From a virus, in the IMG/VR virus record IMGVR_UViG_3300029106_000003, positions 1,317 through 65,316 of that record: 64,000 nt of DNA, one strand, 5' to 3'. The notes under the pieces are model-generated. The model was not told where the DNA came from and made no database searches. It worked only from the letters and a program-made list of their open reading frames with translations. Shown here one piece after another: positions 13,772 to 62,243 of the stretch. Both the position numbers and the translations under genes were made by a program. Every line of letters begins with the position of its first letter. Position 1 is the stretch's first letter.

Positions 13772-13772
13772 T

Positions 13773-14198: not shown

Positions 14199-14200
14199 AT

Positions 14201-28325: not shown

Positions 28326-28687
28326 TCCTCATCATCAGGCAATTCTTGCATCAGTTTCTCAAATGGATTGACAGTAACCTCCTGTTCCAGCCTCTCAACA
28401 TATCCTCTCTCTCGCATTTTGGTCTTACTAAGCCAAATGAGCATTGTGTTGTCTTGTTCTGTCAAAGCCTTTGAGAACATAACAGTTTCTAATTTATCTT
28501 TGAACGCTTCTTCTACTTCCTCCCATTGCTTCCTAAACTCTTCATCTTTCTCTTTCCACTTGTATGCAATGGAACGAGATATTCCGGCTGCCTCACACGC
28601 TTTCGTAACGTTAAGCAGTCTTGCATCAAGTGCATTCAGAAAAATCTCTTTCTTTTTCTTTACAGGAATCCTAAACTTCTGTCCCAT
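28322..28687 (-). CDS. terS: Terminase small subunit (HTH type)
   Basis: 121 aa; HTH ...VTKACEAAGISRSIAYKWKE...; ATGA overlap with terL. Confidence 0.65.
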   Translation of the reverse strand: MGQKFRIPVKKKKEIFLNALDARLLNVTKACEAAGISRSIAYKWKEKDEEFRKQWEEVEEAFKDKLETVMFSKALTEQDNTMLIWLSKTKMRERGYVERLEQEVTVNPFEKLMQELPDDEE

Positions 28688-29375
28688 CTTTATTTACCTC
28701 CAATACGTTATTTACTATTTCCAACATCTTACAAATGCTTAATGCCTGAGCCTTGATTTTATATTTCGCTTGGACTTTTGCACTGATTTCATTTAAATGG
28801 TGCATGGTTTCCATATCTACAAGAGTAAGATTTCCCAACTCTTTTTCCGAATAACACTCTAGCGTTTCCATGAGTTTGTCGAATGATGCTTTCTGCGTGT
28901 CTATGAACATCAGCGTTACAGGAACAATTTCGTTATTCGGCATTTCTACTGTGTAATTAATATCCTTTACACTTTCCAATACTTCGTTACTGATGTGTGC
29001 GTATTCTTTTAAGGCAACATCAGTTATTTCATCAAGTAGCTGTTTTAATACCTCCGCATCGTCTTGACCAACAATACTGTTGTGACTGAGTTGTGTCGCT
29101 AATAGCCAATCGTTGGAAGTGTTATTCTCATCAATATACATTACGTGAATAGAAGTAAGACCTGCCATCTTTGCTGCCTGTGTTCTATGATTACCACTGA
29201 CAACTGTATATGTACCATCATTATGCTTTACACAAAATGGAACAGATGAAAGCTGCCCATCTCTACGGATATTATTAACAAGTGCATTAAATGTGTCATT
29301 GCTCATAAAATGAGCATTCTTCTTGACAAATTTAATGTCAGAGAGTTGAACTTCCTCAATTTTAAATTTTTTCAT
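28671..29375 (-). CDS. ParB N-terminal (ParB/Srx nuclease-like) domain protein
   Basis: ...YTVVSGNHRTQAAKMAGL... ParB-box; ATG 29375 one nt after the upstream stop. Confidence 0.75.
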   Translation of the reverse strand: MKKFKIEEVQLSDIKFVKKNAHFMSNDTFNALVNNIRRDGQLSSVPFCVKHNDGTYTVVSGNHRTQAAKMAGLTSIHVMYIDENNTSNDWLLATQLSHNSIVGQDDAEVLKQLLDEITDVALKEYAHISNEVLESVKDINYTVEMPNNEIVPVTLMFIDTQKASFDKLMETLECYSEKELGNLTLVDMETMHHLNEISAKVQAKYKIKAQALSICKMLEIVNNVLEVNKDGTEV

Positions 29376-29376
29376 A

Positions 29377-31464
29377 TTACTCCTTTCTAGGTTCGTTACC
29401 ATATTTCTGTACAAATGCTTTTAAAATCTCATCTAAATTTCCACGAATACCTGAATCTTGAATATAGTGAAGTTTACCAACGCATCTTTCATGTAACTTG
29501 AATACTCCCCGATACTTCATACTTACGGGCTTATCAGTAAACACAGAAGTGGCAATTATACCACATTCATGCTTGTATCTTATATTCAATTCCTCTTTAA
29601 ATTCAGTTGAAAGCACACCTGTAATAAGTAATCTGCTTAGCTTTGGTATAGTATGGTCTATCACAAAATCTGACTTCATCCAAACTGCATCCATGCCGTA
29701 TTTGCTGACTTTTAAGAAATCAAACATACAAGCTCCAAATACGTAATTATCTAAGAACCATAAATAGCAGAATGGAGCCGAGCCTAATACTATACCTTTC
29801 TTCAAATATATCATACGTAGATAATCTATCTCTGACATAGAAGCACGCATAAAACGAAATTTGCTATTTTCAGAAATGGAATAATCATCTGGTAAACGTT
29901 TGTACTTTAATGGAGTAATAGCACGTTTATTAAAACTGCTATCACCAGTACTACTTACATTGGAATAAATATAAGTTCTCTGGTCTTTGAATACCTCTCT
30001 GCGTCCCATGAAACCATGTTGCGACAATGCCATGTAATTCACCTGCTCTTCATCTATCTCAGAATATTTTGTACGGATTCTTTCTTGCCAACCGAAATCA
30101 TTCAACAAGAAGCGTTGTAAAGCATTGCTTGTAGCTTTCATACCGGAATGAAACTCATTCTGATAAATCAAAATATCATTTTCATTGCAATTAAGTATAG
30201 CATCCGAAATATCAGCACAATACAGAACTTCAATGTTCTTTGATTTCAGATTATCAACGAGTTTCTGATAACGTTCTGTGTATTTCTTCTTGTAGTAATC
30301 TAAACGGGACACGAAGTCATCATATAGTGACTTATGGTAAATATCCTGTGAGTTCTTATGCTTTTTTATGGCATTGAAAAGATGAATAACAGCTACCATT
30401 TCGGAAGGATTGTCCGACTGTAAATCCATGAAACTATACTCGTCGTTGAAACGTAGCTCTTTTATCTCTCCCTTAATAGCTTTATACATAAGATAGATAA
30501 AATACTCTTTCGTATATACCTTTATCTCACGGTTAGTAAGCACTTGTTCTATATCCATGTAGTATGAGTTTACCACATGGGCGACATCAAATCTTGAAGC
30601 CTCTTTTTTGATGAAAGAAAGCATCCGGTTTGACTTCTTGAACATAGAGCCTACTACCGTAACATTATCCGAGTGTTCTGCCGCCCAAAGTAGCGGTTTA
30701 TGTCTTTGGGGAACTTTGGAATAGTCAATATGAAACACCTCAAGACACTTATCAATTGTGGAGAGTTGCTTATACTCTTCTATATTTTCATGCAGGTAGG
30801 CATACTCTACAAATGAATACATGAATTTGATTGTCTCCAATACTTTATCAAAGTTCCATGAACTGTTGAAGATTCTGAACTCTGCCGTGCCAATCTTGGC
30901 AATGGAACATAAATTGAGCCAATACCTGATATGTCCCCTGTCTGAACCATTGTTGAATACTTTTAGTAGGTTGTCGATATTATCAGCTTCTAGCACACGT
31001 TTCACCACATCATATGGAGGGCTTGGCACGAGGTATTTTGTTTCCCACCACTCGGCTATATCGAATATCCGCTTGATTGGATATGCTGTATAGTAGGAAA
31101 GGACAAACATACGCTTGATAACATTCAAATCCATATCTTTGATATACAGATGTGCGTCAAAGCCTTCATTCCACATGAGGTAACTTCCTGCATCTTTCAT
31201 TGTTTTGATGAAGCCTTTCAACTCCTGTAAGTCTTCCACACAATAATGGTATGGACGAGTGTTTATCTCGCCACCAAATTGACCGTGGTGTGTGACAGCC
31301 GAACCGTCCGAGTTATTCATCATGGTTAGCTTGTTGTCCGTCCATTTATAACCGACTGGAAGGGAAATGCATTGTTTGTCTCCATCGGCAAACTCCAATT
31401 CCATGCCAAACGTGCGGTTGGCAATGTAATCAATCCACGGCTTATCTATATTCATGTTCTGCAT
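29377..31464 (-). CDS. Large protein with an N-terminal amidoligase (Amidoligase_2, glutamine-synthetase-like) domain and ~450 aa of unknown function
   Basis: FGMELEF, GGEINTRP and GTAEFRIF motifs in the first ~230 aa; remainder unrecognised. Confidence 0.55.
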   Translation of the reverse strand: MQNMNIDKPWIDYIANRTFGMELEFADGDKQCISLPVGYKWTDNKLTMMNNSDGSAVTHHGQFGGEINTRPYHYCVEDLQELKGFIKTMKDAGSYLMWNEGFDAHLYIKDMDLNVIKRMFVLSYYTAYPIKRIFDIAEWWETKYLVPSPPYDVVKRVLEADNIDNLLKVFNNGSDRGHIRYWLNLCSIAKIGTAEFRIFNSSWNFDKVLETIKFMYSFVEYAYLHENIEEYKQLSTIDKCLEVFHIDYSKVPQRHKPLLWAAEHSDNVTVVGSMFKKSNRMLSFIKKEASRFDVAHVVNSYYMDIEQVLTNREIKVYTKEYFIYLMYKAIKGEIKELRFNDEYSFMDLQSDNPSEMVAVIHLFNAIKKHKNSQDIYHKSLYDDFVSRLDYYKKKYTERYQKLVDNLKSKNIEVLYCADISDAILNCNENDILIYQNEFHSGMKATSNALQRFLLNDFGWQERIRTKYSEIDEEQVNYMALSQHGFMGRREVFKDQRTYIYSNVSSTGDSSFNKRAITPLKYKRLPDDYSISENSKFRFMRASMSEIDYLRMIYLKKGIVLGSAPFCYLWFLDNYVFGACMFDFLKVSKYGMDAVWMKSDFVIDHTIPKLSRLLITGVLSTEFKEELNIRYKHECGIIATSVFTDKPVSMKYRGVFKLHERCVGKLHYIQDSGIRGNLDEILKAFVQKYGNEPRKE

Positions 31465-32308
31465 ACCTCAACTTAACTAAGGATTTATAATTGGGAATGA
31501 ATGTAACAATGTCTCCGATACAATAATCAGAACTGTCACCGTATACTTTCATTATCGTGTATTCGCTTGAGCTGTTAGAAAAGTCCAAATGGTTATCAAG
31601 GCAACGACATTCCCCCATATCAGCCATTGAATAACCGCAATCAAGTAGTATTTGATTCCGCTCAGGGTAAATGCCGATAACTTCTGTATGCAACTCGATA
31701 CCATTTAACCCTAACTTTTCATCATCGCTGTTATATGGGATTGTGCCAAATAGCATATATTCTCCAATGCGCACGTCGCTTATGAATTTAGGTAGATCTT
31801 CATTCTGTCCTAACCAAAAACTACCACCTAAACTGATAGATTCAATGTAACTATTCAGCTTAGACCATATTTCACACAATCGTTGCATATTCGGCCTGTT
31901 TCCATTTAGGCAACCGGAAGTAATCATACCATAAGCGTGAGAATTATCATCGCATTTACGAACCGTATTAGCAATCTGTCTTGCTTCAAATAGGCTTACT
32001 CCCTCTCTGTTGTCGAAAGCATTGATGGGAATATATATTTTTTTAATACCCTTATTTACTACACAATCCATTGCTTCATACGCAGTAACAGTTACTGTCC
32101 CTTTCTGATTATGAATTGCTTTTCCAATAGAGTAGCACACGCTATCTTCAAAGTGAAGCGAGAAAATGTCATTATCAACCCTATAATGGATATGTCTCCA
32201 AATATCCTCATAGAAGTCTTTGAACATGAGAGAGACAGGGACATTCACAAGCGTTTCCGCTTTCTTGATGTTCTTTATAACATTATCAGTATATATGATT
32301 ACTTTCAT
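31442..32308 (-). CDS. YhfX-like predicted amino-acid racemase (fold-type III PLP barrel)
   Basis: SLMFKDF (candidate PLP Lys), ITSGCLNG, SLGGSFW, RIGEYMLFGTIPY; start taken at the ATGA overlap (32308), alternative 32317. Confidence 0.55.
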   Translation of the reverse strand: MKVIIYTDNVIKNIKKAETLVNVPVSLMFKDFYEDIWRHIHYRVDNDIFSLHFEDSVCYSIGKAIHNQKGTVTVTAYEAMDCVVNKGIKKIYIPINAFDNREGVSLFEARQIANTVRKCDDNSHAYGMITSGCLNGNRPNMQRLCEIWSKLNSYIESISLGGSFWLGQNEDLPKFISDVRIGEYMLFGTIPYNSDDEKLGLNGIELHTEVIGIYPERNQILLDCGYSMADMGECRCLDNHLDFSNSSSEYTIMKVYGDSSDYCIGDIVTFIPNYKSLVKLRYAEHEYR

Positions 32309-33204
32309 AGCTCCCATTTTAAAATGATACGTTCAGCTCCTTTGTATTTCGTATCTCGTTTGAATGAGAACCCGACATTGGTGAAACTTTTTATGCTTGC
32401 TTCATTTTTAGGAGAGGTCATTGCAAATATCTCTTGTGCACCATTAGAAACCAATTTTGCGATATTCGCATTGAGAAGGAGGTACTGGAATCCATTTCCT
32501 CTGTAACCAGAACAGACAAAACATTTGTCGACGTATGCCGTACCGTATTCCGTAAAATAAGCAAGCGAGTAGGCTACAAGAGAACCGTCTAGCAATAAGC
32601 CATAACTGCAACCGGATTGCAAACATTTAGTTATATCCTGTGGTTCTGATGCAAAGCAGGTTTCAGGATTCGAGAGCATGGTTTGTTCCATTGCTTCAAT
32701 TTCAGAAATGTCAGACATGGACAGCGTTTTGATTTCCATCTTACACTCAATGCTTCCTATATCAGTGGGAAACAAAGGATCATATCTGTCTATCCATGCT
32801 TTAGATAGGAATACATCAATATCTGTTTGAGGTAGTAATTTTCTTCTGTAATTTTCAAAAATACCTAATACAAACTCTTTATGCTTAGTTAGTTGTTCAT
32901 TCTTCAAAGGGCACTTACCACTACGAAAAACAAAGCCTTTATTCACTGATTTTATCCACAATGGATAGGTACGACACATGATAGGTTTATAGCCGTTATC
33001 ACATGATTTGCAGTTTTTAGCGATACATTTTACCTTTTTACCGCCAAAATAATCATTATCTATAATTTGTAAATGGGATATTTCCTGTTCGTGTCCAGCA
33101 AATTCATGGGGTAGAATAACAATATGTCCGTCCGATCCGAACGAACAACATTTCCAACCGCAACCGGAGTTTTCGCATGCTCTTATTAGTCCTTTATCGT
33201 ACAT
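32305..33204 (-). CDS. YkgJ-type Cys-cluster domain fused to a GNAT acyltransferase
   Basis: CENSGCGWKCC and CIAKNCKSC...C clusters at the N-terminus; C-terminal GNAT motif A (CSGYRGNGFQYLLL). Confidence 0.6.
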   Translation of the reverse strand: MYDKGLIRACENSGCGWKCCSFGSDGHIVILPHEFAGHEQEISHLQIIDNDYFGGKKVKCIAKNCKSCDNGYKPIMCRTYPLWIKSVNKGFVFRSGKCPLKNEQLTKHKEFVLGIFENYRRKLLPQTDIDVFLSKAWIDRYDPLFPTDIGSIECKMEIKTLSMSDISEIEAMEQTMLSNPETCFASEPQDITKCLQSGCSYGLLLDGSLVAYSLAYFTEYGTAYVDKCFVCSGYRGNGFQYLLLNANIAKLVSNGAQEIFAMTSPKNEASIKSFTNVGFSFKRDTKYKGAERIILKWEL

Positions 33205-33279: not shown

Positions 33280-33426
33280 AAATTCAATCATTCTTCAAGC
33301 TACTTACAAGAACACTTATGCAATTCTTCGGCTTCTTTCAGTCGTGTCAGATAGCAATTTCTATCACCCCGTAAACTGCACAAGCTTTAATGTTCTTGCT
33401 TTTGCTTATCGCTACTATAAGGGTTG

Positions 33427-33496
33427 AGCGGAAACAGGGAATCGAACCCCACTCTTTGGTTGGAATGCCAACGCTCTGCCGATGAGCTATTTCCGC
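33427..33496 (-). tRNA. tRNA-like gene with glycine identity set and an apparent 8-nt anticodon loop (CAUUCCAA)
   Basis: Acceptor GCGGAAA/TTTCCGC, D arm GCTC-ATCGGCA-GAGC, T arm TGGGG-TTCGATT-CCCTG, discriminator T. The anticodon arm pairs only as TTGG/CCAA around CATTCCAA. Confidence 0.6.
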
Positions 33497-37477: not shown

Positions 37478-37708
37478 TTAAATTGCTAACTTTAATTTTT
37501 CTATATCTCGAATAAGCCTATTAGCTCTCTGCCTTTCATTGCTTGCAAAGTCCTCATTACAGATACTTTCATAGAATGCTGCATTTTCTTCTGCCTCTTT
37601 TAACGAAATCTCTTTGCGTTCTATCAAAGACTTTATTGCATCAATATCATTGCTATTAATGACTTCTTCTAAAGCTGTCCTTTTTGTTAATTCGATTGTC
37701 GCTTTCAT
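37478..37708 (-). CDS. Small helical hypothetical protein
   Basis: First gene after repeat-promoter R2. Confidence 0.55.
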   Translation of the reverse strand: MKATIELTKRTALEEVINSNDIDAIKSLIERKEISLKEAEENAAFYESICNEDFASNERQRANRLIRDIEKLKLAI

Positions 37709-37716
37709 TGCTCTTT

Positions 37717-37838
37717 GTCTTTTAATTGTTAGTAATGTTGTTGTTTTAGTATTGTAAAGATACTCATTATCAGCGAGTTAACCAAATATTTACAGCGTTA
37801 TTTTGCTCATAATCAAGAGTTTAACTTTTGGTAACTTG
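37717..37838 (-). repeat. R2: promoter-leader repeat (copy 2 of 3)
   Basis: See R1; identical architecture, and the repeat extends into the first codons (MKAT). Confidence 0.8.
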
Positions 37839-37982
37839 AAATGAAATATGAATGAAATGGAGTATCACGGACAATAGGTTTAATCTATTGGTTTTTATTA
37901 AAGTGACCCGGCTTTTGTTTCCACAGTGATATAGCCGGGCCACCGCTCTTGTTGTTTTGGAAGAGCACGTGTATTTGGTGTA

Positions 37983-38270
37983 TTAATCTCCACAATAACG
38001 CCCGCTTTGGTTTCTGTAATACTCTATTATACCTCTTTCCATTGCTGAGTCGAATACAATCGATTCGGGCTTTTGTGCGGGTCCCGACTTTTTCATTAAC
38101 CGGCGAGCCTCTTTTTCTGCCTTGCGGGCTTCCGCTTTCATCTTAAACCATGCGTTCCTCAAACAAGCACTGAACGACTGGCAGAACTCACGGCCGAGAA
38201 CCGAGATAGAGCGTTTATACATTGACCATGCCATTTTGAAGAGTTGCGATTTGTTGATTTTCGTTTTCAT
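37983..38270 (-). CDS. First leftward gene of the switch; basic hypothetical protein
   Basis: 95 aa Lys/Arg-rich; its -7 box TATCTTTA (38294-38301) overlaps operator O1. Confidence 0.55.
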   Translation of the reverse strand: MKTKINKSQLFKMAWSMYKRSISVLGREFCQSFSACLRNAWFKMKAEARKAEKEARRLMKKSGPAQKPESIVFDSAMERGIIEYYRNQSGRYCGD

Positions 38271-38293
38271 ATCTTTGTTTTAGTTTTATGATA

Positions 38294-38382
38294 TAAAGAT
38301 ACAAGTTATATCTTGTATTTACAATAGTTTGAGCAAGATTTATCTTGTATTTAACTTTATTTATACAAGATATAGCTTGTAT
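38294..38382. promoter_or_regulatory. Divergent switch region with three 20-bp operators
   Basis: ATACAAG-N6-CTTGTAT at 38299-38318 and 38363-38382, and the degenerate copy gAGCAAG-N6-CTTGTAT at 38331-38350; centres are exactly 32 bp apart. Confidence 0.7.
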
Positions 38383-38428
38383 ATACTAATAAAAAAACGA
38401 CTTTTGTAACAGAAATAACTTTTAGGAT

Positions 38429-38692
38429 ATGAGAATAAGAGATATTATTGAGCAAAAAGGTATAACGACAAAAGAGTTAGCCGAAAGAATGGGAATTAGC
38501 CAAAGTGCATTGAACCAACATATATCAGGGAATCCTTCGATTAAAGTTCTTACTTCAATTGCTTCTAATTTAGGAGTTGATATATGGGAATTGTTTATAT
38601 CACCAGAAGAAGTACGCCCCAATAGCGATACTACTATATTGACGTGTCCTAAATGTGGAGCGAAGTTAAAGGTAATTGAGTCAAAAGATTAA
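38429..38692 (+). CDS. XRE-family HTH protein with a C-terminal zinc ribbon; candidate prophage repressor
   Basis: ITTKELAERMGISQSALNQHISG HTH; CPKCGAKL at the C-terminus; divergent from the early operon. Confidence 0.65.
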   Translation: MRIRDIIEQKGITTKELAERMGISQSALNQHISGNPSIKVLTSIASNLGVDIWELFISPEEVRPNSDTTILTCPKCGAKLKVIESKD

Positions 38693-38695
38693 GCC

Positions 38696-39457
38696 ATGAA
38701 CGAGGAAATAACAAAGCTATTACTTCAATGCGACACGTTGAAAGCCCGTTTGTTGGGGCTGCGCCCATTACCACCGGATGCCCTGCAAAAGATAGAGAAT
38801 GCGTTTGCCATTGAATACACCTATGAAAGCAACCGGATCGAGGGAAATACGCTCACACTGCAAGAAACGGAGTTAGTAGTGAACGAGGGGGTTACTATCG
38901 CCGGAAAGTCAATGCGGGAACACCTTGAAGCGATTAACCACGTTGAAGCGATAGACTACATAAAGGACTTTGCAAAGGGAGGTATGGAAATATCGGAGCG
39001 CACAATCAAGGAAATACACGCTATTGTGCTACATGGCATAGACAGAGAGAATGCCGGACGTTATCGGGGCGTGCCTGTTATGATTTCGGGAAGTACACAT
39101 GTCCCTCCACAGCCGTATTTGATACAACCACAAATGGAGGCTTTTATGACAAGGTTTTCCGGAATGGAGGAGCAGGGCATTCACCCGGTGCTCATTGCGG
39201 CTTATCTTCATGATGAGTTGGTACGAATACACCCGTTTATAGACGGGAACGGGCGCACATCTCGGCTTCTGATGAATCTATACTTACTCCGCAACGGTTA
39301 TACGCTGGTAAATCTCAAAGGCAGCAACGAGGACAAAATAAGCTATTACAAGGCACTGGAAGCCTCTCATACGGAGAACAATCCGGCAGAGTTCCAAAAG
39401 GTCGTTATACGGGCTGAAATAGAATCTTTAAGCCGGTATCTCTCAATTGTAGGATAG
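38696..39457 (+). CDS. Fic-domain protein (class II, with N-terminal inhibitory motif)
   Basis: HPFIDGNGRTSR active-site motif; SNRIEG matches the (S/T)xxxE(G/N) auto-inhibition motif. Confidence 0.85.
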   Translation: MNEEITKLLLQCDTLKARLLGLRPLPPDALQKIENAFAIEYTYESNRIEGNTLTLQETELVVNEGVTIAGKSMREHLEAINHVEAIDYIKDFAKGGMEISERTIKEIHAIVLHGIDRENAGRYRGVPVMISGSTHVPPQPYLIQPQMEAFMTRFSGMEEQGIHPVLIAAYLHDELVRIHPFIDGNGRTSRLLMNLYLLRNGYTLVNLKGSNEDKISYYKALEASHTENNPAEFQKVVIRAEIESLSRYLSIVG

Positions 39458-39562
39458 TATTGTCTGGATTTTAAAGATTATGAATGAAGCAATGATTTCA
39501 TTTGTAACTCGTTTAAGTTTATTTATTACCTGACACGACCTAAATTTAAAGTATAAGGAGAC

Positions 39563-39592
39563 AAAAAAAAGGAGGGCGTTTTGCGTCCTCCT
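39563..39592 (-). terminator. Rho-independent terminator after higA
   Basis: Minus strand AGGAGGACG-CAAAA-CGCCCTCCT followed by T8. Confidence 0.7.
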
Positions 39593-39616
39593 CGTTATGG
39601 ATCCTGCTTTATATAC

Positions 39617-39949
39617 TTACCACAAAGCAACCTTTCCGCCTATTCCCAAATCAAGGGTGGCCGTTGTAATTCCCAAAGCCTTAAAAACTTTGCTCATAGT
39701 AGGAAGTGTTATTATACACTTACCGCTTTCAAGTTTGGATATTTGCGACTTCTTTACACCTACTTTAGCCCCTAACTCTTCCTGTGTGAGGTTCTGTTTG
39801 AGCCTTTCTGCCTTGATAGCCTCTCCAATGTAATAAGCCTGCAAATCATCTTTGAGTTGAGCTTCCATAGCGTCCCTTTCGGGAGTGCCTTTTTCTCCCC
39901 AAACCTCATCTACTACCACGCTAAGTGGAGTTAAGTTCATCTTTGCCAT
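39617..39949 (-). CDS. higA: HigA-type XRE antitoxin
   Basis: C-terminal HTH LTQEELGAKVGVKKSQISKLESG; 2-nt spacing from the toxin gene. Confidence 0.75.
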   Translation of the reverse strand: MAKMNLTPLSVVVDEVWGEKGTPERDAMEAQLKDDLQAYYIGEAIKAERLKQNLTQEELGAKVGVKKSQISKLESGKCIITLPTMSKVFKALGITTATLDLGIGGKVALW

Positions 39950-39951
39950 AG

Positions 39952-40296
39952 CTATTTGTTTTTATCGTTGAAGTATTCTATTCTCAATTTCTCCGCCTTT
40001 TCTATCTCCTTTTTAGGCGTTTTCTGTGTCTTTTTCACTATCCCGTGAGTGGCTACTACCAAAGCCTCTATTTCCGTGTCCCAAAAAGCAAACAGGCGAT
40101 AACATACCCCGTTAAAGAGCGTCCGAAACTCCCATATATCGGAGTTCTCCAACTTCTTGAAGAGTTCCTTATCTATTTCCCCTCCCTCCACTTTAAGGAG
40201 ATTATAGGTTATTTTCTTTTGCGCCTTTTCTGGTAAGGAAGAAACAAACTCCCTTGCTGCGTCCATAAATGCTATTTTTATTCTTCGTCCGCTCAT
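39952..40296 (-). CDS. higB: HigB/Gp49-like RelE-superfamily toxin
   Basis: IWEFRTLFNGVCYRLFAFW...VVATHGIVKKTQKTPKKEIEKAE pattern; ATG 40296 (the TTG at 40320 overlaps the -7 box). Confidence 0.7.
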   Translation of the reverse strand: MSGRRIKIAFMDAAREFVSSLPEKAQKKITYNLLKVEGGEIDKELFKKLENSDIWEFRTLFNGVCYRLFAFWDTEIEALVVATHGIVKKTQKTPKKEIEKAEKLRIEYFNDKNK

Positions 40297-40317
40297 AAGG
40301 TTCAAATTATTACTCTG

Positions 40318-40355
40318 CAAAGATATACAAAAGTTTCCATAAAAGCAAACTTTTG
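40318..40355 (-). promoter_or_regulatory. higBA promoter with inverted-repeat operator
   Basis: Minus strand CAAAAGTTT-N10-AAACTTTTG, 2 nt, then TATCTTTG. Confidence 0.5.
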
Positions 40356-40486
40356 CGAGGATTTATTAGCTTGATAATTGGCTGACCCCTCCTACTTGTA
40401 AGCTCGGAGGGGAGATGTTCAGGAAATTGGGATCCGATATATTATAAACATCGGTATCTTTATATTAATGCTTAAAATATTACGTT

Positions 40487-40786
40487 TCATATCGCCTTAA
40501 AATCCAATCGGCCTAAATTGTCATTTATAGACTTAATGATACTTTCCTGTATCAAGGTTCCGCATTGGGTTGTTAGTTGTATAAAGTGATCTGTATCATT
40601 ATCTGATACAATTCCGTACTTGTTCTTCCAGTTGCAAAAAGAGTTCTCTATATCTCGCAATCCTGCCAACATGATTAATAACTCCCTTGTCTGTCCACTG
40701 ATGACTGCGTTACGCATGGTATCGACGCTACGATGTTCGATTACTTCTACTGTCTGCTCATCTTGTTTTAATTCGGTTGTTTCCAT
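40487..40786 (-). CDS. Hypothetical protein
   Basis: ORF track. Confidence 0.55.
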   Translation of the reverse strand: METTELKQDEQTVEVIEHRSVDTMRNAVISGQTRELLIMLAGLRDIENSFCNWKNKYGIVSDNDTDHFIQLTTQCGTLIQESIIKSINDNLGRLDFKAI

Positions 40787-40992
40787 ATAAAAAAAGTTTA
40801 TTGTTTAACGATGTTAGGAATAGCGGGAATCCTCCCGGACACGTCCGCTACCGGTGGGATAGCTTACTTTCACAAGCGGCTGCCCCGTCTATAATTTAAC
40901 AAACATATAAAAGCACCCTATTAGGGTAGGGTAACCCGGAGCGGATAAACCGCCCCTTTGGATTTATAATAACTTTATGGTTATAGCTGATA

Positions 40993-41805
40993 TTATGCCG
41001 AGAGTTTGGTATTGAACAATTCAATGACAAACTTTCTACCTGATTCGGTCCAATACATGTGCTCTCTTGATTTCTGTACTCCGTTATCCATATAAGGGTA
41101 GGGGACATGTTTGGTAAATCCTTTACTGCGGTATTTGGCCGTGAGGAAGTAAACAGAAGATTGTCTGTATTGAACTCCCCATTCACATAGTAGTTTGTTC
41201 AGCTTTATAGCCGATACACCTAAGAATGCTGCTATCATGTTTGTCGTCACAAGTCCTTCACTCGACATGATTTCATCGTAACATTTACCTTTGGGGGCGA
41301 GGACCTTTATAGTATCGTCCTTTATGGATATTTCCTCGTCTTTTCTCTCGATGATAATTTGTTTCTGGGCATTTTCAGTTTCGAGCTGTTTTAATCGTTC
41401 TTCTCTTTTGGCAAGAGTGGCTTGTGCAATGGTTAGTGCACGTGCCATGATTTCTTCTGGTGTGTCTTCTTGCTTGGTGGAGATGTAGCCGCCTGTCTTT
41501 CGGATTGACGGAAGGACTTCACTTGTTATCCATTTGCGAAATGATTTTGCTTCTTGCTTCCTACTATCAAGAATAACATCATACATTCCGTCTTCATTAA
41601 CGAATAACATTTGTTGTATGCCTCCTGTTGTTTCAAGGGGGTAAGTTGAAATTACCTCCTTACTAAGTCTCTGATTTACGCCTTTTGATGATAATCCAAG
41701 ACATCTGCATAAATCACCTAAGCAAAATTTAGGATCATCGCTTGTACCGGCAGTACGGATTTCACCGAATTTAGGTGAATTAAAAATTTGAATGTTAGAT
41801 TGCAT
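40993..41805 (-). CDS. Bro-N / phage antirepressor (Ant, KilAC-type C-terminus)
   Basis: N-terminus IQIFNSPKFGEIRT...FCLGDLCRCLGL...FRKWITSEVLPSIRKTGGY is the Bro-N pattern; C-terminal Ant-like domain. Confidence 0.75.
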   Translation of the reverse strand: MQSNIQIFNSPKFGEIRTAGTSDDPKFCLGDLCRCLGLSSKGVNQRLSKEVISTYPLETTGGIQQMLFVNEDGMYDVILDSRKQEAKSFRKWITSEVLPSIRKTGGYISTKQEDTPEEIMARALTIAQATLAKREERLKQLETENAQKQIIIERKDEEISIKDDTIKVLAPKGKCYDEIMSSEGLVTTNMIAAFLGVSAIKLNKLLCEWGVQYRQSSVYFLTAKYRSKGFTKHVPYPYMDNGVQKSREHMYWTESGRKFVIELFNTKLSA

Positions 41806-42253
41806 ATCTGTAAGCATTTAAAGATATGTTATAGGCAAACATAAAAAGCGGCTGCCATATACGCTGCTTACAGATAATGGGTTCCACTCCACAGAGCGAA
41901 ATATCTACGTATAGGCAACCGCCAATATATAAAAGTATAGGCATAAAAAAAGCCCAACTTTCTATTGAGCAAATTAACCGCTTGCCCTGCGAAATGGTTT
42001 ACCATTATCATGTAAGCATTACAAAAGTATTGAATTTTACGAGGTAATGCTAATTATTGGGCACAAAATTAGAGCATGGAATCTTGAAAGTATATGAATT
42101 TCATACATAATTCAACATTATTAACCTTTGAGGGCTATTATACGATTTCCTAAATCAGTGAATCGTAAGGCAGTATTAAAAGATACGAAAAGTAAGCACA
42201 TATGTAAATATTGGTAAGTATCTTGGTATCTATTGAAATTCATTTTATCTGAA

Positions 42254-43168
42254 TCATAATAGAGCTAATGCTTGTGTTACAATCGGTGTTAGTTGATTTG
42301 CTGCTATTCCCGTAGCAATACCTTGTATAGCGTTCAATGCCAATTTTAAGGTTTTCTTACCCCAAGATGGTTTATTACACTCTTCTTTTATCGTATCAAT
42401 TGCCATTTTTAGGTCTGAATTATCTATATCACTTGCTTTTTCTACAAGCTGAGAGATTACACTTTGTAGTTTTTCTTTTTGATCTTGGTCTGATATATAT
42501 AATGTAAGATCACTGTCTGAAATATTTCCTGTATTGACATTACCATCTCCTGTATTAGCTACTACTGAATTAATATAATAATTATTCATAATATTACTTA
42601 TCACTTTTTGTTCTTCAATTTTCGAAAAATCAATACCTGCATCAATTTTTTCGTCTAAATCTAGAAAAAATGATAACAGCTTTGACTTAAATTTATCAAC
42701 AATACACACCAATGAAGACACTGAGAACTCCTGCCATACTTTTTCTACATTCCCAGAAACATATTTGTTTACTTCGGTATATGCCATTGATGGAGAATTA
42801 ATAGATACATTGCCAGTTTTTTGGCTACTGCCTATATTTTCTATTTCGTTTAGTGAATGAACAATGCACACATGACTCATGCAATCATTTATGATAGCAT
42901 TATCAAAAATACCTTGAGGAATTATGATGTTTTGATACATTCCCACAAATGGTTGTGAAACATTGGCCTTTACAATAGCATTGAGAATTCTATAATCTGG
43001 AAGGTTTTCTGCATCTGGATATCCATTTTGTTCGTTTCTTATCCACATTTCAAAGTCATTATTACCCAATTTGGATGCGACTATCTGAGCTTTCAATAAT
43101 ATACCTTTAATCGGCTTATCATCGCCTAAGTCTTGAATGATTTTGTTTATTATCTCTTTCATAAGCAT
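42254..43168 (-). CDS. AbiTii-like abortive-infection domain protein
   Basis: N-terminus ...IKGILLKAQIVASKLGNNDFEMWIRNEQNGYPD...LPDYR matches the AbiTii signature; 1-nt overlap with the upstream gene. Confidence 0.6.
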   Translation of the reverse strand: MLMKEIINKIIQDLGDDKPIKGILLKAQIVASKLGNNDFEMWIRNEQNGYPDAENLPDYRILNAIVKANVSQPFVGMYQNIIIPQGIFDNAIINDCMSHVCIVHSLNEIENIGSSQKTGNVSINSPSMAYTEVNKYVSGNVEKVWQEFSVSSLVCIVDKFKSKLLSFFLDLDEKIDAGIDFSKIEEQKVISNIMNNYYINSVVANTGDGNVNTGNISDSDLTLYISDQDQKEKLQSVISQLVEKASDIDNSDLKMAIDTIKEECNKPSWGKKTLKLALNAIQGIATGIAANQLTPIVTQALALL

Positions 43169-44232
43169 TATTTCATTCGAAAAATATTCATAGGAATAAC
43201 CTTCGGTTTACAGACAAACCAATTAATAAAATCAGCCTTATTAATGCGCATCACACTCATTAAATCCTCATCGGTATATCCTAATTCGTTTCGATACAAA
43301 TTTAGTGTTTCTTCCCACATCGTAGGATGTTCTACAGGAAGAGGTATTGGTTCAATTCTACTATATCCTTTTTTGGAAAAGTATATTTGCAAATTACGAT
43401 ACTGCTGATATGTAATAGCGTCCAAGTCCCTAGCCCTTCTAACTAAAGCATGCATAGATACTCGCCATTTTCTTTTGAGTATACCTAATATTTGTACATT
43501 CAAATTTTGCAACATTGGAAAAATTTCCTCCTCTGGCATTAAAAATTCTGAAGCAAATTCATCCGCTTGACGTTCTGCATCATCAGAAGAACAAGGCGGA
43601 TTTTCTAAATGCATCACCAAATGTCCTAACTCATGAGCCATTGAGAAGCGAATTCTGTCATTAGGCATTTGATTGTTAATAAACATTACTTTCTTATCGG
43701 AATCTGTTATTGTTGTTAATCCATCTATTTTATCGGTTCCAAAATCAAAACGAATAATAATAACACCGTTATTTTCAAGCAATGTTGATAAATTGGGAAC
43801 TGCACCATTGAAAACTTTTAGTTTATATCGTATATTACGAGCAATTTCTTTAGCTGACAAATTTTCATTTGGGATATAATTACCTAAAGTGTATTCTGGC
43901 AATTCAACAGCAGACATTAATTCATCAATGATCGCTTTAAAAATCTTTACTTTGGCAACAAAAGAATCTATTATTTTATTTGTAACAGTAAGTTTCTTTC
44001 TATAATAGAGATGCCCTAGTGGAGAAATCCCTTCACTACGCATAAAAAATGTTTCGGGAAAATCGTAGTATTTACACAATTTTTCCATTATATCTCTTGG
44101 TAGCTCTTGAAGTCCGTGCTCGGCTTTCGATAAAGACGATTGAGATATTCCTACAGCCTCAGCAACTTCTTTTTGCGTTTTTTGCCTTAACAATCGAACT
44201 GTTTCAAGTAATGAGAAATTTATATTATTCAT
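43168..44232 (-). CDS. XRE HTH fused to an ImmA/IrrE (M78) zinc metallopeptidase
   Basis: HTH KTQKEVAEAVGISQSSLSKAEHG; HEXXH as MAHELGHLVMH. Confidence 0.8.
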   Translation of the reverse strand: MNNINFSLLETVRLLRQKTQKEVAEAVGISQSSLSKAEHGLQELPRDIMEKLCKYYDFPETFFMRSEGISPLGHLYYRKKLTVTNKIIDSFVAKVKIFKAIIDELMSAVELPEYTLGNYIPNENLSAKEIARNIRYKLKVFNGAVPNLSTLLENNGVIIIRFDFGTDKIDGLTTITDSDKKVMFINNQMPNDRIRFSMAHELGHLVMHLENPPCSSDDAERQADEFASEFLMPEEEIFPMLQNLNVQILGILKRKWRVSMHALVRRARDLDAITYQQYRNLQIYFSKKGYSRIEPIPLPVEHPTMWEETLNLYRNELGYTDEDLMSVMRINKADFINWFVCKPKVIPMNIFRMK

Positions 44233-44834
44233 ACAGCCTCTTTATTGTGGTTCGTTTTCTTAAATCTGGGTTTCTGTGCAACAATTTCTTTGTTTTCACT
44301 TTCTATTTCTACAACATCTACTATTTGTTGTGTCGGAATAGAATATTTCCATAAAGTGGTTTGTCCTTTAATATATTGCAGACTTAGCGTATTTATATTT
44401 TCCCTAAATGTATCTAATGTATATACTATGGAAATGACATGGCATCCTAATTCTTGATTTCGAATTTTATCCTCCTGCTTAGTCCTATTTCGAGTGCTAT
44501 CTGCCAATTTTATGATAAAAACATAACCTTGATATTCAAAAAATAATCGTTCATTTCCAGATATATTTGAAGTAAAAACAAAATGTTCTGAGGTCATCTG
44601 AGCAGAAAGTTCATTTTTTATTGCATTATATATATCTTCATGAAGACAATGAGATATTACGCTCATCGAGTTGAGCCCTTCGCGAAATTTTTCCTGTGTT
44701 TTACTTAAACCTGTTGTAACTCCAATTCTTAAACATTCTTCAAATTTATCGGTCAATACGGATGCTTTAAATTTATCCGAATTGAATTCATGTTCAGCAG
44801 GAAACACTGAGCATTGTATAATTTCTTTTGTCAT
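44229..44834 (-). CDS. Hypothetical protein, first gene of the three-gene operon
   Basis: 201 aa; ATGA overlap with the HTH-M78 gene; TATATTTG -7 box at 44862-44869. Confidence 0.6.
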   Translation of the reverse strand: MTKEIIQCSVFPAEHEFNSDKFKASVLTDKFEECLRIGVTTGLSKTQEKFREGLNSMSVISHCLHEDIYNAIKNELSAQMTSEHFVFTSNISGNERLFFEYQGYVFIIKLADSTRNRTKQEDKIRNQELGCHVISIVYTLDTFRENINTLSLQYIKGQTTLWKYSIPTQQIVDVVEIESENKEIVAQKPRFKKTNHNKEAV

Positions 44835-46251: not shown

Positions 46252-47871
46252 TTATCGGAAATGACTATAATATTCAATAGATTTTTCTACTATTTTTAGT
46301 GCTTCATTACTTGATTTATCGAGTATGCGCCATTGCTCATAATATTTATGTCCGAGACCACCTTCCATTCCTGTCTCATTATGTATTTCTTCCCAACGTT
46401 TTTTCCCAAGAATACGTTTCGCATCTTCCGGCCTTTCTTTTGCAAAAATCATACGTTCCGTATTAACTTGTATTTCCGCAGTAAGACCATTTGTGGTTCT
46501 TATGTTTACGATGTTTCCACTATATACCATGAATGATTCTGGTTTTTGCCTTTTAAGGCGTAAGAAGCCTTCCGTTTTGTACAGTTCTTCTAACACATCT
46601 TCTATTCGGGACTTCGGAACGATTATGGTTGTTCTTACAGCACCTTTAATATCGTATGGAGTTATACCTTCTGTGATGACTTTTCTTGTGATAGAAGTTG
46701 TACTCTTGAAATTAATAGGCGTAACATAACCACCATTTTTTATTGCGATCCGTTCTGCTATGGACTGTACTTCATCTCCCACTGATGATGCTCGTTTTAC
46801 AATTTCCGAAATGGAACTTTCAACTGTTATTTTCTGATAAACGGATTTATTATCACGCAAAAAGTATGGTAAAGTATTACGTTTTTTTGCTGTGCTGATG
46901 CGCTCTTGATTATCTAATACCCACTTTTTGAAAGCGTCCGGTACGTCTTTAACTTCGTTCACGCTTGCTGTCGTGGCTTCATTCCGACCGTCCCATTCCC
47001 AAAATTCTTCTTCGGTTTTTAGAATGGGTATCTTGTAACACCGGCAAAGGGGATGCCAACCGGTCCATTGGAAGTCTTTCGGGTACTTCCCAGCTAGTAT
47101 ATCGCAAATGTCTTGGAAAGGCTTTCCGTTACAAGTATGATTGTTGCTCAACTTGATTTCATATCCCACCACGAAGTCCATCTGCTGCCAGCGTAGATTT
47201 TCCGCTTGGCGGTATGCCATATTGATTTCGGAAGCAGCCAAACGGATAGAACGATACTCGCAATCCATTGCCCGTGATGCTTTTCCGAACCTTTCCTTGT
47301 AATCTTTTTGTAGTTGCGGGAAATCGAGCAGATATTTGGAGATTTGCTTACTTAATGTAATTGCACTCGTACCTTTTTGAATGGCACATGATATAGCTTC
47401 TTCAAGTTCTTGCTTATACAGAGTCGATTGATTCCACAACTTATCTGATATGGTAAATCCTTTATCCTTACGTTGCTGAAACGCTTTCAATGCATCATTA
47501 TTGGGCTGGTATAGGATTTCGTATTTCTCCTTTCCTATGGTTGCGCCATAAGTTTGCAATACTTTGTTGGCAAGAAGATCTTGAACTTCGTTGCTGTTTT
47601 TCCATTCTTCAGAAGTTCCACTATATATTACAGATCCGATGTCCTCAACGAACCGTTCTTGTAAGTCTCTTATCCGTTTCCTTGTTTGGGGATAATCCGA
47701 CCACATAAACGTCCTATCACTATCAATGGTAAAATCGGTAATTCCGACTATTTTAGCCGCCTCTAAATTCAAATCCTCGTATATGGATTCCACAAGCATG
47801 ACGTACTTGGCGAGCCGTTTATTCAGCTCGCCGTACTTGCGTTTCTGATTTGGAGTTTTTGGCTTTGCCAT
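46252..47871 (-). CDS. Head morphogenesis protein (MuF / SPP1 gp7 family) with a C-terminal RelA/SpoT-like nucleotidyltransferase domain
   Basis: MuF core NHTCNGKPF...GWHPLCRCY (aa ~245-280); C-terminal FKSTTSITRKV, DIKGAVRTTIIV, VYSGNIVNI, TAEIQVNTERM (aa ~385-475). Confidence 0.75.
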   Translation of the reverse strand: MAKPKTPNQKRKYGELNKRLAKYVMLVESIYEDLNLEAAKIVGITDFTIDSDRTFMWSDYPQTRKRIRDLQERFVEDIGSVIYSGTSEEWKNSNEVQDLLANKVLQTYGATIGKEKYEILYQPNNDALKAFQQRKDKGFTISDKLWNQSTLYKQELEEAISCAIQKGTSAITLSKQISKYLLDFPQLQKDYKERFGKASRAMDCEYRSIRLAASEINMAYRQAENLRWQQMDFVVGYEIKLSNNHTCNGKPFQDICDILAGKYPKDFQWTGWHPLCRCYKIPILKTEEEFWEWDGRNEATTASVNEVKDVPDAFKKWVLDNQERISTAKKRNTLPYFLRDNKSVYQKITVESSISEIVKRASSVGDEVQSIAERIAIKNGGYVTPINFKSTTSITRKVITEGITPYDIKGAVRTTIIVPKSRIEDVLEELYKTEGFLRLKRQKPESFMVYSGNIVNIRTTNGLTAEIQVNTERMIFAKERPEDAKRILGKKRWEEIHNETGMEGGLGHKYYEQWRILDKSSNEALKIVEKSIEYYSHFR

Positions 47872-51575: not shown

Positions 51576-51862
51576 AATCGTGTTTTCATGACATTATCAG
51601 TAATTTTGTTCCCTGTACTATCAAATACTTCTATGGTTGGTCTACCTCCGTTATCAATAGGAGAAATAGCCTCTGATGTTTCATATAAAGTTTCTCCGTC
51701 TGTAACCATTATCTGCTTGTCATCTTCAAAACAAAGTACATCTTCACCTTCCCATGATTTTATTATTTCTAACGCTTCTTTATAACTTTCTGCTTCGATA
51801 GAAAACTGAGTACGCTCCCAACATGTTACTTTGCGGTCCTGATAAAAATCAAATGTTTTCAT
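51572..51862 (-). CDS. Hypothetical protein
   Basis: First gene after repeat-promoter R3. Confidence 0.55.
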   Translation of the reverse strand: MKTFDFYQDRKVTCWERTQFSIEAESYKEALEIIKSWEGEDVLCFEDDKQIMVTDGETLYETSEAISPIDNGGRPTIEVFDSTGNKITDNVMKTRL

Positions 51863-51884
51863 TGCTATACTATTTTAGTAAATA

Positions 51885-51990
51885 ATATTGGTTTCTTTTA
51901 GTATTGTAAAGATACTCATTATCAGTGAGTTAACCAAATATTTACAACCTTATTTTGTTCATAATCAGGAGTTTAACTTTTGGGAACTTT
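51885..51990 (-). repeat. R3: promoter-leader repeat (copy 3 of 3, most diverged)
   Basis: Shares ttttagtattgtaaagatactcattatcag.gagttaaccaaatatttaca...agtttaacttttgg with R1 and R2. Confidence 0.75.
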
Positions 51991-58596: not shown

Positions 58597-58802
58597 TTAT
58601 TCTCAATATTGATAGTGAATGCCCCCCCGTTCAGGGTCTTGTGCTTGTCAATCTCACCGGTTTTGCATAGCTCGTTTATCTCGGATTTGAGTGACCGGAT
58701 AACCACCGACTGTATTTCGGTAAAGCTCGCTATGGAGGGCTCCTTGTTATTCTTTTTCTTTTCCTCGATAATGGAGGATATAACTTGCTTGGCTATAATC
58801 AT
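58593..58802 (-). CDS. Small hypothetical protein
   Basis: ORF track. Confidence 0.5.
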   Translation of the reverse strand: MIIAKQVISSIIEEKKKNNKEPSIASFTEIQSVVIRSLKSEINELCKTGEIDKHKTLNGGAFTINIENK

Positions 58803-58829
58803 GGCTATTCTTGTTTTAACAATTCTGGG

Positions 58830-59519
58830 TTATGAGAATACAGCCGGCAGGTACTTGTGCCGGTAAACGTTTTTCAGATAGGTTATCATTTGGTCGTAGC
58901 TCTTGATAAAGCCCTCGTTGATAAGGTCGGCGACTTTTCTTTCCAGCTCGTACAATTCCCGCTGTTTCTTTTCTTCGCCGTATTGGTTGCGGATATTCCT
59001 TTCATGCTCGTTGAACACAATCCAGTTCAACGCTTCGCCTACTTTCTGCATGGCTTGGGGCATGAAGTCTTTCCGAACGATCTTTGAAACAGCCGAGCCT
59101 AGTTTGTTGTAGGCATCGCCGGCTTCGTTGCGGTACTTTATCATTTCGTCATAGACGAATTTCAACACCTTAACTTTAAACGACGGGTTAATCCACATTG
59201 CAAAATCGATGAACAGTAAGGGCGACATCCAAACAGCTCCTGCCTCTTTGCTCCCGTCTTTGTTGGTTCTCGATTTATTTATTATAAGTATTTGATTTAT
59301 AGGTTTTTCGGAATTCCGAATTTGATCGTCGTCATTTATAAGAGCTTTTATAAACTCTTTTGTCTTACTGTTTTCGAGATAGTGGTTAACATTTTTCTTG
59401 TGGTTGTTGCCTTCGTTCCACTGTTTCAACAATTCGGATGCACAGAAAAATCCGTCTTTGGTACGTTGGGTCACATCTATGTTACCCATTCGCCTTTTCA
59501 TCAGTTGGTTCGTTTTCAT
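58830..59519 (-). CDS. KilA-N domain DNA-binding protein
   Basis: ...GAVWMSPLLFIDFAMWINPSFKVKVLKFV... KilA-N pattern. Confidence 0.7.
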   Translation of the reverse strand: MKTNQLMKRRMGNIDVTQRTKDGFFCASELLKQWNEGNNHKKNVNHYLENSKTKEFIKALINDDDQIRNSEKPINQILIINKSRTNKDGSKEAGAVWMSPLLFIDFAMWINPSFKVKVLKFVYDEMIKYRNEAGDAYNKLGSAVSKIVRKDFMPQAMQKVGEALNWIVFNEHERNIRNQYGEEKKQRELYELERKVADLINEGFIKSYDQMITYLKNVYRHKYLPAVFS

Positions 59520-59962: not shown

Positions 59963-59973
59963 AATACTAAAAT

Positions 59974-60222: not shown

Positions 60223-60223
60223 A

Positions 60224-60787: not shown

Positions 60788-60804
60788 TATATTTTGTCTT
60801 TTTA

Positions 60805-61893: not shown

Positions 61894-61908
61894 ATCTTTC
61901 TCTTTTTG

Positions 61909-62138: not shown

Positions 62139-62243
62139 TACCACCTAAAACACTTATGGCTTATTTCTCCCCGCAGTTCCTTCCTCCGTATGGTGCTCGA
62201 CCACGTACCCGGTTCTGCTTGCGGGAATGTCTCACATTATGTC

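Follow-up and report, generated by a model that had tools for sequence, protein, structure and literature searches.

We analyzed a stretch of 64,000 nucleotides from the virus record IMGVR_UViG_3300029106_000003 (hereafter, the window), nearly all of which belongs to one phage transcribed from the minus strand, with genes for a portal, a MuF-like protein, the large terminase, the major head protein, the tape measure and a fibre. At about 38.3 kb, an array of three palindromes (O1 to O3) sits between a leftward gene encoding a protein of 95 amino acids (aa) (37983..38270, minus strand) and a rightward gene encoding an 87-aa helix-turn-helix (HTH) protein of the XRE family (38429..38692, plus strand), which is followed by a Fic gene (38696..39457, plus strand). 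A previous sequence-only reading of this DNA took the arrangement for a lambda-like genetic switch. Here we describe the locus together with its relatives, and propose that it is a portable repressor/operator cassette that probably serves as a secondary, local switch in an integrated prophage.

The two outer sites, O1 (38299-38318, ATACAAGTTATATCTTGTAT) and O3 (38363-38382, ATACAAGATATAGCTTGTAT), are perfect copies of ATACAAG-N6-CTTGTAT. The central site O2 (38331-38350, GAGCAAGATTTATCTTGTAT) is a weaker copy, GAGCAAG-N6-CTTGTAT, with an intact CAAG/CTTG core and degenerate outer left positions. The sites follow each other at 32 and 32 bp from start to start; since 32 bp correspond to three helical turns, dimers bound to them would all lie on one face of the DNA. 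The coordinates and letters of these 20-bp sites, and their exact spacing between divergent genes, were as the sequence-only reading had given them, and shuffling indicates that they exceed chance. The perfect motif matches the window twice, at O1 and O3 only, and none of 100 dinucleotide-preserving shuffles equalled the observed count of matches with up to three mismatches. For the 8-nt core CAAG-N6-CTTG, the window has 4 occurrences where 0.77 would be expected, and three of the four are in the array and in register.

Bacteroidetes promoters, as reportedly described by Bayley et al. in 2000, have TTTG at -33 and TAnnTTTG at -7. Sigma-70 promoter scans being inapplicable to Bacteroidetes, we searched for TTTG-N19-21-TAnnTTTG instead. 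The predicted leftward promoter (PL) has a -7 box TATCTTTA (38301 to 38294, minus strand; consensus TAnnTTTG) 23 nt from the ATG of the 95-aa gene, a spacer of 20 nt, and ATTG as its -33 element (38325 to 38322). O1 lies in this spacer, from about -11 to -30, and shares 3 nt with the TATCTTTA box, an overlap that had also been pointed out before. For the predicted rightward promoter (PR), the favoured -7 box is GACTTTTG (38399-38406, plus strand), 22 nt before the HTH ATG; its -33 element, CTTG at 38376-38379, lies 19 nt upstream of the box, within the right half of O3. An alternative rightward promoter (38328..38359, plus strand) consists of TTTG at 38328-38331, a spacer of 20 nt and TAACTTTA at 38352-38359, and would place O2 in the spacer and O3 at the start site. 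The TAACTTTA block is kept in two groups of relatives described below (A and B), but B lacks the -33 element and a further group (D) has only a poor box; we consider this promoter less favoured. With either choice of PR, bound repressor should occlude PL at O1 and autoregulate PR, most likely negatively, with class II-like activation from about -40 as the alternative.

The 87-aa protein falls in PHROG repressor families. In Pfam it matches HTH_3 only (4.5e-10; 39.9 bits, cut-off 23), with no S24 or other cleavage domain, and a search of genome contigs with it returned distant matches only, among the matches listed. Its AlphaFold2 model (predicted local distance difference test score of 87.5) has an HTH domain (residues 1-56) whose five helices lie within residues 3-55, a flexible linker and one C-terminal beta-hairpin, with C73 and C76 at the turn. 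The Foldseek neighbours, for the HTH domain only, are the 434 and P22 repressors, SinR, CapH and the C-proteins of restriction-modification (R-M) systems. The tail had been read as a C-terminal zinc ribbon; however, C73 and C76 are the sole cysteines and form a single CxxC knuckle, i.e. half of such a ribbon. Members of the family keep one CP[KHNY]CG, or have a non-Cys alpha/beta domain in place of the tail. Judging from the model, a zinc site would need two chains, and might play a role in dimerisation or in bridging between dimers.

The comparison covered about 200 related loci, including 71 obtained by scanning viral contigs for the HTH protein and 55 from a search with the 95-aa gene. Loci with near-identical HTH proteins (group A) retain the three sites. 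The HTH proteins of two other groups are 54-60% identical to that of the window: group B (about 57%) has a CxxC tail, and group D (about 55% over the HTH only) has a non-Cys C-terminal domain. Both share the recognition helix LNQHISGNPS, and both have CAAG-N6-CTTG three times, at 32/32 or 31/32 bp. In group C the C-terminal tail is nearly that of group A, but it follows another N-terminal domain (…DVNTRNIVNG…). The palindrome of group C is also different: ATAATGT-N3-ACATTAT is found three times at 33/32 bp, and nowhere else in the 10-kb locus. The flanks of group C (the 95-aa gene on one side, the tail and Fic on the other) are still 95-100% identical to those of the window. When the window is aligned to one such locus (L050), identity stops at 38301/38302, where the -7 box meets the operator, and resumes near 38590, at about codon 54. 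The segment 38302..38590 comprises the operators, PR and the HTH domain up to about residue 54, and is exchanged as one block, in the manner of an allelic "immunity" cassette.

The slot between these flanks is highly polymorphic. Among the loci found with the 95-aa gene, all 54 with upstream DNA kept (of 55) have an HTH gene with the conserved tail upstream. We distinguished nine N-terminal HTH types (T1 to T9; the window has T1, and group C corresponds to T2), each with its own repeated palindrome except for the pair T3 and T8. These two have the motif TTAG-N6-CTAA in common, so that there are eight operator motifs, the others being CAAG-N6-CTTG, AATGT-N3-ACATT, TCTG-N6-CAGA, GTATA-N8-TATAC, TAAAG-N7-CTTTA, AAAG-N6-CTTT and TGTAA-N10-TTACA. 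An initial assignment of GTTA-N4-TAAC to T8 turned out to be wrong on re-inspection. Across types the outer operators are usually 64-67 bp apart. A central site weaker than the other two is likewise seen in groups B and C and in types T4, T7 and T9. In all types, TAnnTTT(G/A) boxes on the two strands flank the array and keep a fixed distance to each start codon. Leftwards, a -7 box directly adjoins the first operator in all nine allelic types and in groups B and D, and is kept as TATCTTTA, TATCTTTG, TACATTTG or TACCTTTG; on the other side, a perfect TAnnTTTG is found 20-29 nt before the HTH start in every type other than type 1 and in groups B and D. Within type 1, the 70 loci have 11 distinct intergenic sequences, with 24 core positions invariant; nine of the 13 variable columns are outer or spacer positions of the operators.

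Other candidates for the binding protein do not follow the operators. The 95-aa protein is 69-100% identical across the nine types and does not track operator type, nor do the variants of a nearby HigA-like gene: variant 2 of this toxin-antitoxin (TA) pair occurs with type-1 operators in one locus (L011) and with type-2 operators in another (L050). Since the palindrome and the HTH domain change together between near-identical flanks, and since the same helix keeps the same motif, the adjacent HTH domain very probably recognises O1-O3. Binding of the HTH protein to these sites had been proposed before, and comparison across loci strengthens that part. The cooperativity proposed along with it fits the weak O2 and the three-turn phasing, which suggest that the array may be filled cooperatively.

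We also observed arrays that depart from this plan. The type-2 relatives L051 and L118 have a 65-bp deletion that comprises exactly O1 and O2 (two operator periods) and leaves O3 alone; L051 also has its Bro/ANT gene broken into two open reading frames (ORFs). These may be decaying or regulatory-mutant prophages. In the group-B loci L025 and L026 there is unrelated DNA in place of O1-O2, and a second HTH paralogue (93 aa, 42% identical) is located 1 kb upstream. In another group-B locus (L046) an in-frame fusion joins the HTH ORF to a segment of about 115 aa upstream of it, which took the place of the operator region and which by eye we take to be similar to GIY-YIG homing endonucleases.

On the rightward side, the Fic gene starts 3 nt past the stop codon of the HTH gene, and the two are therefore expected to be co-transcribed. 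It encodes a class II Fic protein (Pfam Fic, 1.2e-22; PADLOC SoFic, 2.1e-32), so that an 87-aa XRE protein followed by Fic, as originally described, is indeed what the locus contains. The Fic protein has its own N-terminal SxxxEG inhibitory motif (ESNRIEGN) along with HPFIDGNGR, whereas the HTH protein has no inhibitory motif. We considered the HTH protein as a FicA-type antitoxin and ruled this out, because Fic carries the inhibitory motif itself and relatives swap Fic for unrelated cargo. The cargo after the HTH gene varies independently of HTH type, and includes Fic, a YbjQ_1-domain protein, lipoproteins and a 228-aa protein. Its position on the transcript of the regulator suggests, by analogy with rexAB and cI, that the cargo may be expressed from the prophage.

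On the leftward side, the 95-aa gene is the first gene driven by PL, perhaps the only one, and a conserved partner of the HTH cassette. Its product belongs to a narrow family with no Pfam or HTH match, no detectable homology to antirepressors, and PHROGs of unassigned function; a distant homologue is found in the equivalent place in group B. A role as a Cro-like operator binder was ruled out, given that the protein does not co-vary with the operators and has no HTH match. Directly past the gene there is a stable 12-bp hairpin with a poor U-tract (37903..37944, minus strand; z = -3.8 for a 156-nt region), which may be a terminator or an RNA-stability element. In one relative (L164), a T9 operator array and its -7 box are fused directly to the common leader of the next operon downstream, named here after its DUF3560 gene, and there is no 95-aa gene. 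The array can therefore, as far as this fusion tells, gate the DUF3560 operon directly.

The leader of the DUF3560 operon belongs to a repeated element. We identified three near-copies of a promoter and leader element of about 135 bp on the minus strand (37696-37838, 26551-26694 and 51857-51989), which are 85-94% identical. Each copy combines a conserved block upstream, a promoter of the Bacteroidetes consensus (TTTG-N20-TATCTTTA), a leader of about 45 nt, and an ATG. The copies head three operons: that of the portal, that of the head and tail genes and, for the copy at 37696..37838, the operon 76-aa/DUF3560/PcfM/tRNAs/GNAT-amidoligase/ParB/terminase. They are probably co-regulated promoters with a common factor-binding site, possibly those of a late class. 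The 95-aa protein was considered as an essential late activator of these promoters, an idea weakened by the absence of its gene from L164 and from a second relative, L176.

Judging from its distribution, the 38.3-kb cassette is accessory and portable. L176, a viral contig of 67.7 kb, encodes a DUF3560 protein 100% identical to that of the window and entirely lacks the region corresponding to 37480-41395. In the group-B lineage, the homologous trio belongs to the early region, while the DUF3560 operon, some 15 kb away, retains its promoter copy. The sequence-only reading also had a Bro/Ant protein as the antagonist of the HTH repressor. This Bro-N/KilAC gene (ant, 40993-41817) is often near the HTH gene in groups A and B, but we found it absent where the HTH gene is present (L091, L173) and present where the HTH gene is absent (L176), and a motif scan of the window found no operator upstream of ant. 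Since the two genes are separable and no operator precedes ant, the proposed antagonism is unsupported.

The flanking DNA of relatives identifies the element as an integrated prophage, with a size of about 73 kb. The relative L102, 96-99% identical to window 1-14330, continues leftward into a gene for a 415-aa tyrosine integrase beside a tRNA-Pro and then into host genes, which places a tyrosine integrase about 2.7 kb past the left end of the window. On the other side, L096 is 100% identical to window 58707-63998 and continues rightward through early genes, a repressor with an S24 domain and a 3' tRNA fragment into host genes. The exact HTH protein is also encoded on metagenome contigs of at least 250 kb. 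Given contigs of this size, and the integrase, tRNA and host-gene junctions in relatives, we conclude that the element is chromosomal and not an episome. The mode of lysogeny had been left open, with an episome among the options; comparison points to chromosomal integration at tRNA genes, and the integrase and attachment (att) sites that the sequence-only reading suggested looking for in the flanks are found just outside the window, in the contigs of relatives. The host is probably Barnesiella (Bacteroidales): the NCBI label on a cluster of proteins 98% identical is Barnesiella intestinihominis.

Integration sites differ among relatives. In L102 the integrase gene (15127-16623) is next to the tRNA-Pro, while L100 and L101 have a tRNA-Ser at the junction with no adjoining integrase. 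In the lineage of the window itself, the 3' tRNA fragment at the junction (about 4460-4510 of L096) resembles tRNA-Gly(CCC). Since different tRNA sites are used among relatives, the integration modules appear to be mosaic too.

The S24 repressor at the right end is a complete CI-like protein of 252 aa with HTH and Peptidase_S24 domains, encoded divergently from an 83-aa gene (L096 4896-6004, equivalent to about 67650-68760 in window coordinates). It is located about 4 kb past the right end of the window, at the prophage end adjoining host DNA and about 30 kb from the 38.3-kb cassette. The 98-bp intergenic region between the two genes contains a palindrome, AACTATA-N7-TATAGTT, and a perfect TATATTTG box. 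This module is likely the primary lysis-lysogeny switch of the phage. A search for its palindrome, as candidate CI operator, across the window and in particular upstream of ant gave chance-level matches, and no link from CI to ant.

Prophages with complete CI-like repressors have been described in Bacteroidales in a preprint by Avellaneda-Franco et al. 2026 (10.64898/2026.06.25.734096), where Bacteroidales prophages are classed only by presence of a complete CI. The phage of the window is comparable to these, being an integrated gut prophage of Bacteroidales that has that repressor class as well; unlike the complete CI, the 38.3-kb protein is of the "N-terminal-domain-only" type and has its own operator array. 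In the portion of 10.64898/2026.06.25.734096 considered here we found no description of a role for an N-terminal-domain-only regulator alongside a complete CI, and its supplement has no gene-level rows matching Fic, antirepressor or HTH. Our search of the literature found no Bacteroidales prophage regulatory circuit dissected at the operator level.

Comparison of loci thus reveals three sites with conserved spacing, operators that co-vary with the HTH domain, exchangeable cargo, a portable cassette and an integrated element. Our interpretation, to which we give a probability of about 0.62, is that this prophage has a secondary, local switch in the form of a portable XRE-repressor/operator cassette, for which many specificity alleles exist. 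It includes predicted promoters, a predicted direction of regulation, presumed cooperativity and expected expression during lysogeny. In the mechanism that we propose, dimers of the 87-aa HTH protein would bind the three palindromes, three helical turns apart on one face of the DNA. At O1, in the PL spacer and at the edge of its -7 box, they would shut off the 95-aa gene and read-through into the operon of DUF3560, DNA-modification, ParB and terminase genes. O3, with the help of the weak O2, would cover the PR -33 element, so that the transcript of repressor and cargo is autoregulated, and this transcript would also deliver defence-type cargo (the SoFic-like Fic) from the prophage. The primary switch, of the CI(S24)/Cro type, would operate about 30 kb away, outside the window.

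Such a locus would be a second control point with predicted promoters and operators. The at least eight apparently orthogonal repressor/operator pairs on one conserved scaffold could explain cross-immunity and cross-talk among polylysogens, which are frequent in the gut, and could serve as parts for Bacteroidales genetics. The locus would also provide an example of defence cargo, SoFic-like and other, riding on the transcript of a prophage regulator.

Several observations weigh against this interpretation. In the motif-by-region matrix of operator types, off-diagonal matches are limited to the motif common to T3 and T8 and to one T5 match in the T7 region, but the motifs of T3-T9 were picked by eye in the regions where they were then counted, and the diagonal of the matrix is partly so by construction. 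In type 1, PR has an imperfect -7 box, GACTTTTG, and there is another candidate for the rightward promoter, which makes the sign of autoregulation uncertain. Owing to the hairpin after the 95-aa gene and to the separate promoter copy 0.5 kb downstream, PL may control the 95-aa gene only. Centres 32 bp apart are at about 109 Å, far for direct contact between dimers of an 87-aa protein. Finally, with the cassette absent from the close relative L176, the function that it gates would not be essential, which sits awkwardly with its immunity-like allelic diversification.

An unlikely alternative is a second immunity system resembling immI of phage P22. The HTH protein would be the counterpart of Mnt and silence the 95-aa protein, an antirepressor or lytic-commitment factor; its loss would induce the phage indirectly, and it would also confer superinfection immunity against phages of the same type. 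The immI region of P22 consists of mnt-arc-ant, and immI of P1 is another secondary immunity region. As in these two, there is here a second regulatory node apart from CI/Cro, far from the main repressor and among late or accessory genes; divergent promoters, which are predicted in the present case, share common operators, and related phages differ in their alleles. Immunity determinants typically show such a diversity of specificity alleles, and this alternative would best explain the allelic diversification; O1 is also well placed for tight repression of PL. Furthermore, the 95-aa gene and the conserved C-terminal tail travel together, and both differ in group B. The parallel fails for the proteins, which are HTH here and ribbon-helix-helix in P22. 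Unlike in P22, Bro-N/KilAC is not placed under the operators and can be found apart from the cassette, and the leftward 95-aa product is only a putative antirepressor, with no detectable homology to this class. Moreover, L176 is without the entire module, and L164 has an array without the 95-aa gene.

We regard it as also unlikely that the cassette is an autoregulated defence "moron", in which the HTH protein would merely control the downstream cargo, in the style of R-M C-proteins, CapH or antitoxins, and the overlap with PL would be incidental. In that case the finding would be an ordinary one. Consistent with it, the HTH gene is 3 nt from interchangeable cargo that includes a SoFic-like gene, the cassette is accessory and portable, C-proteins and CapH are among its structural neighbours, and there are weak PADLOC matches to capH and PDC regulators. 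Like these regulators, it encodes a small stand-alone XRE HTH protein directly upstream of a potentially toxic or defence gene, with which it is presumably co-transcribed, and would bind palindromes at its own promoter. Yet Fic is self-inhibited by SxxxEG and needs no antitoxin, and some of the cargos are lipoproteins. Three phased sites over about 84 bp exceed the needs of autoregulation, for which C-proteins have a two-site C-box, and a divergent promoter is predicted to be controlled as well: a leftward -7 box abuts the first operator in the nine types and in groups B and D, and the L164 array heads the DUF3560 operon directly. Also unlike C-proteins and CapH, there are many specificity alleles in one slot, a CxxC tail and no adjoining partner protease.

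A more speculative elaboration, to which we attach a small chance, is a self-contained bistable module of novel design. The CxxC knuckles of separate chains would share zinc, in the style of the Rad50 hook, and bridge dimers bound at operators exactly three turns from each other, which would make the array cooperative, while the 95-aa partner would antagonise the repressor through its C-terminal tail, the whole forming a portable second immunity. The tail is proposed as the target of the 95-aa protein because the 95-aa gene travels with it and not with the DNA-binding specificity. If true, the module would gate the operon of anti-defence, DNA-modification and packaging genes, and would determine, in polylysogenic Bacteroidales of the gut, which of the co-resident or incoming relatives are kept silent.

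The sequence-only reading had the 87-aa protein as the maintenance repressor in a lambda-like switch. In its strong form, with the protein as the lysogeny-maintenance repressor of the phage in a CI/Cro switch, we now find this improbable. Comparable switches are immC of lambda, 434 and P22 and those of Gram-positive temperate phages; in Lactobacillus phage A2 and the lactococcal phages r1t and TP901-1, three operators are found between divergent cI and cro or mor genes. The window is similar to these lambdoid and Gram-positive switches in having an HTH protein of the XRE/Cro-C1 type and several palindromic operators, with a weaker central site, in tandem between predicted back-to-back promoters. 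The expected co-transcription with a defence gene is reminiscent of cI with rexAB, and the exchange of repressor and operator specificity as a block between conserved flanks, of heteroimmunity and the imm regions of lambdoid phages. Unlike in those switches, however, the repressor has only 87 aa and contains neither an S24 cleavage domain nor a large domain for oligomerisation; the 95-aa protein encoded divergently is no HTH protein of the Cro kind and does not change along with the operators; and operator centres are 32 bp (three turns) apart, compared to about 23-24 bp in lambda. The cassette also coexists with a separate CI-S24/Cro-type module, which has a complete HTH and S24 repressor and a small divergent gene and occupies the canonical place at the prophage end. 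The cassette itself appears to be dispensable and portable, being absent in L176 and elsewhere in the group-B genome. Complete CI-like repressors are reported to predict DNA-damage induction in Bacteroidales prophages (10.64898/2026.06.25.734096).

Lastly, it is hardly credible that the repeats serve as a centromere (parS), as iterons or as an origin, with a ParB-like or replication protein binding them in place of the HTH protein: they are regularly phased palindromes and the phage encodes a ParB_N protein (28671-29414), but they change with the adjacent HTH domain in blocks whose boundaries hug both, overlap predicted promoter elements on both sides and have no further copies in the window or its flanks, and the element is chromosomally integrated.

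Elsewhere in the window, several regions vary among relatives. An island of defence-type genes (39617-44834) lies between the cassette and the MuF gene, with a Gp49/HigB-like and HigA-like pair, a 99-aa protein, Bro-N/KilAC, AbiTii, an HTH-M78 fusion (PADLOC RmrA, 6e-56) and a 201-aa protein. Its content differs among near-identical relatives, which show SocA_Panacea genes, an inverted TA pair and whole-island deletions. The MuF-like head protein (46252-47871) has 539 aa here and 554-893 aa in the relatives L085, L092 and L094. The longer versions contain an ADP-ribosyltransferase toxin domain (a match to the PHROG Bxa ADP-ribosyl transferase, and Pfam ADPrib_exo_Tox), so that this protein looks like a polymorphic, virion-delivered toxin. 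Another exchangeable cassette (28671-33204) encodes here Amidoligase_2 with GNAT-phage-like, GNAT and ParB_N; its counterparts in L087, L089 and L091 have DAM-like-phage, ATP-grasp/D-Ala-D-Ala ligase or octopine-DH-like genes. We take this cassette to be akin to phage DNA-hypermodification genes. Two plus-strand genes (18423-20074) are inserted between the tape-measure gene and the minus-strand genes upstream of it, one encoding 386 aa with a nuclease-like domain of type I restriction enzymes (HSDR_N) and the other 164 aa. This segment has the lowest local guanine-cytosine (GC) content of the window (0.336) and a reversed GC skew, and is probably another moron.

We found no phage relatives in GenBank by megablast with the regions 36-42 kb and 10-34 kb, and identities for the terminase protein did not exceed 30%. 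Two candidate relatives were dropped: Pomma, which is transposable, and LoVEphage, similar in size and lifestyle, for which identity could not be shown. The only Rfam matches were tRNAs. ARAGORN called a tRNA with an incomplete anticodon ("tc") at 33426-33496, adjoining a tRNA-Cys and with an Rfam tRNA score of 47 bits. A third tRNA is Gly-TCC (20805-20876), and the 270-aa ORF whose GTG start it overlaps is probably spurious. GC content is 0.47-0.51 at window positions 1-4000 and 8000-12000, versus about 0.37 elsewhere. These high-GC regions hold lysis genes, unassigned genes, and the 423-aa and 1097-aa fibre-like genes, and the contrast suggests that the host-recognition end of the genome has a different origin.

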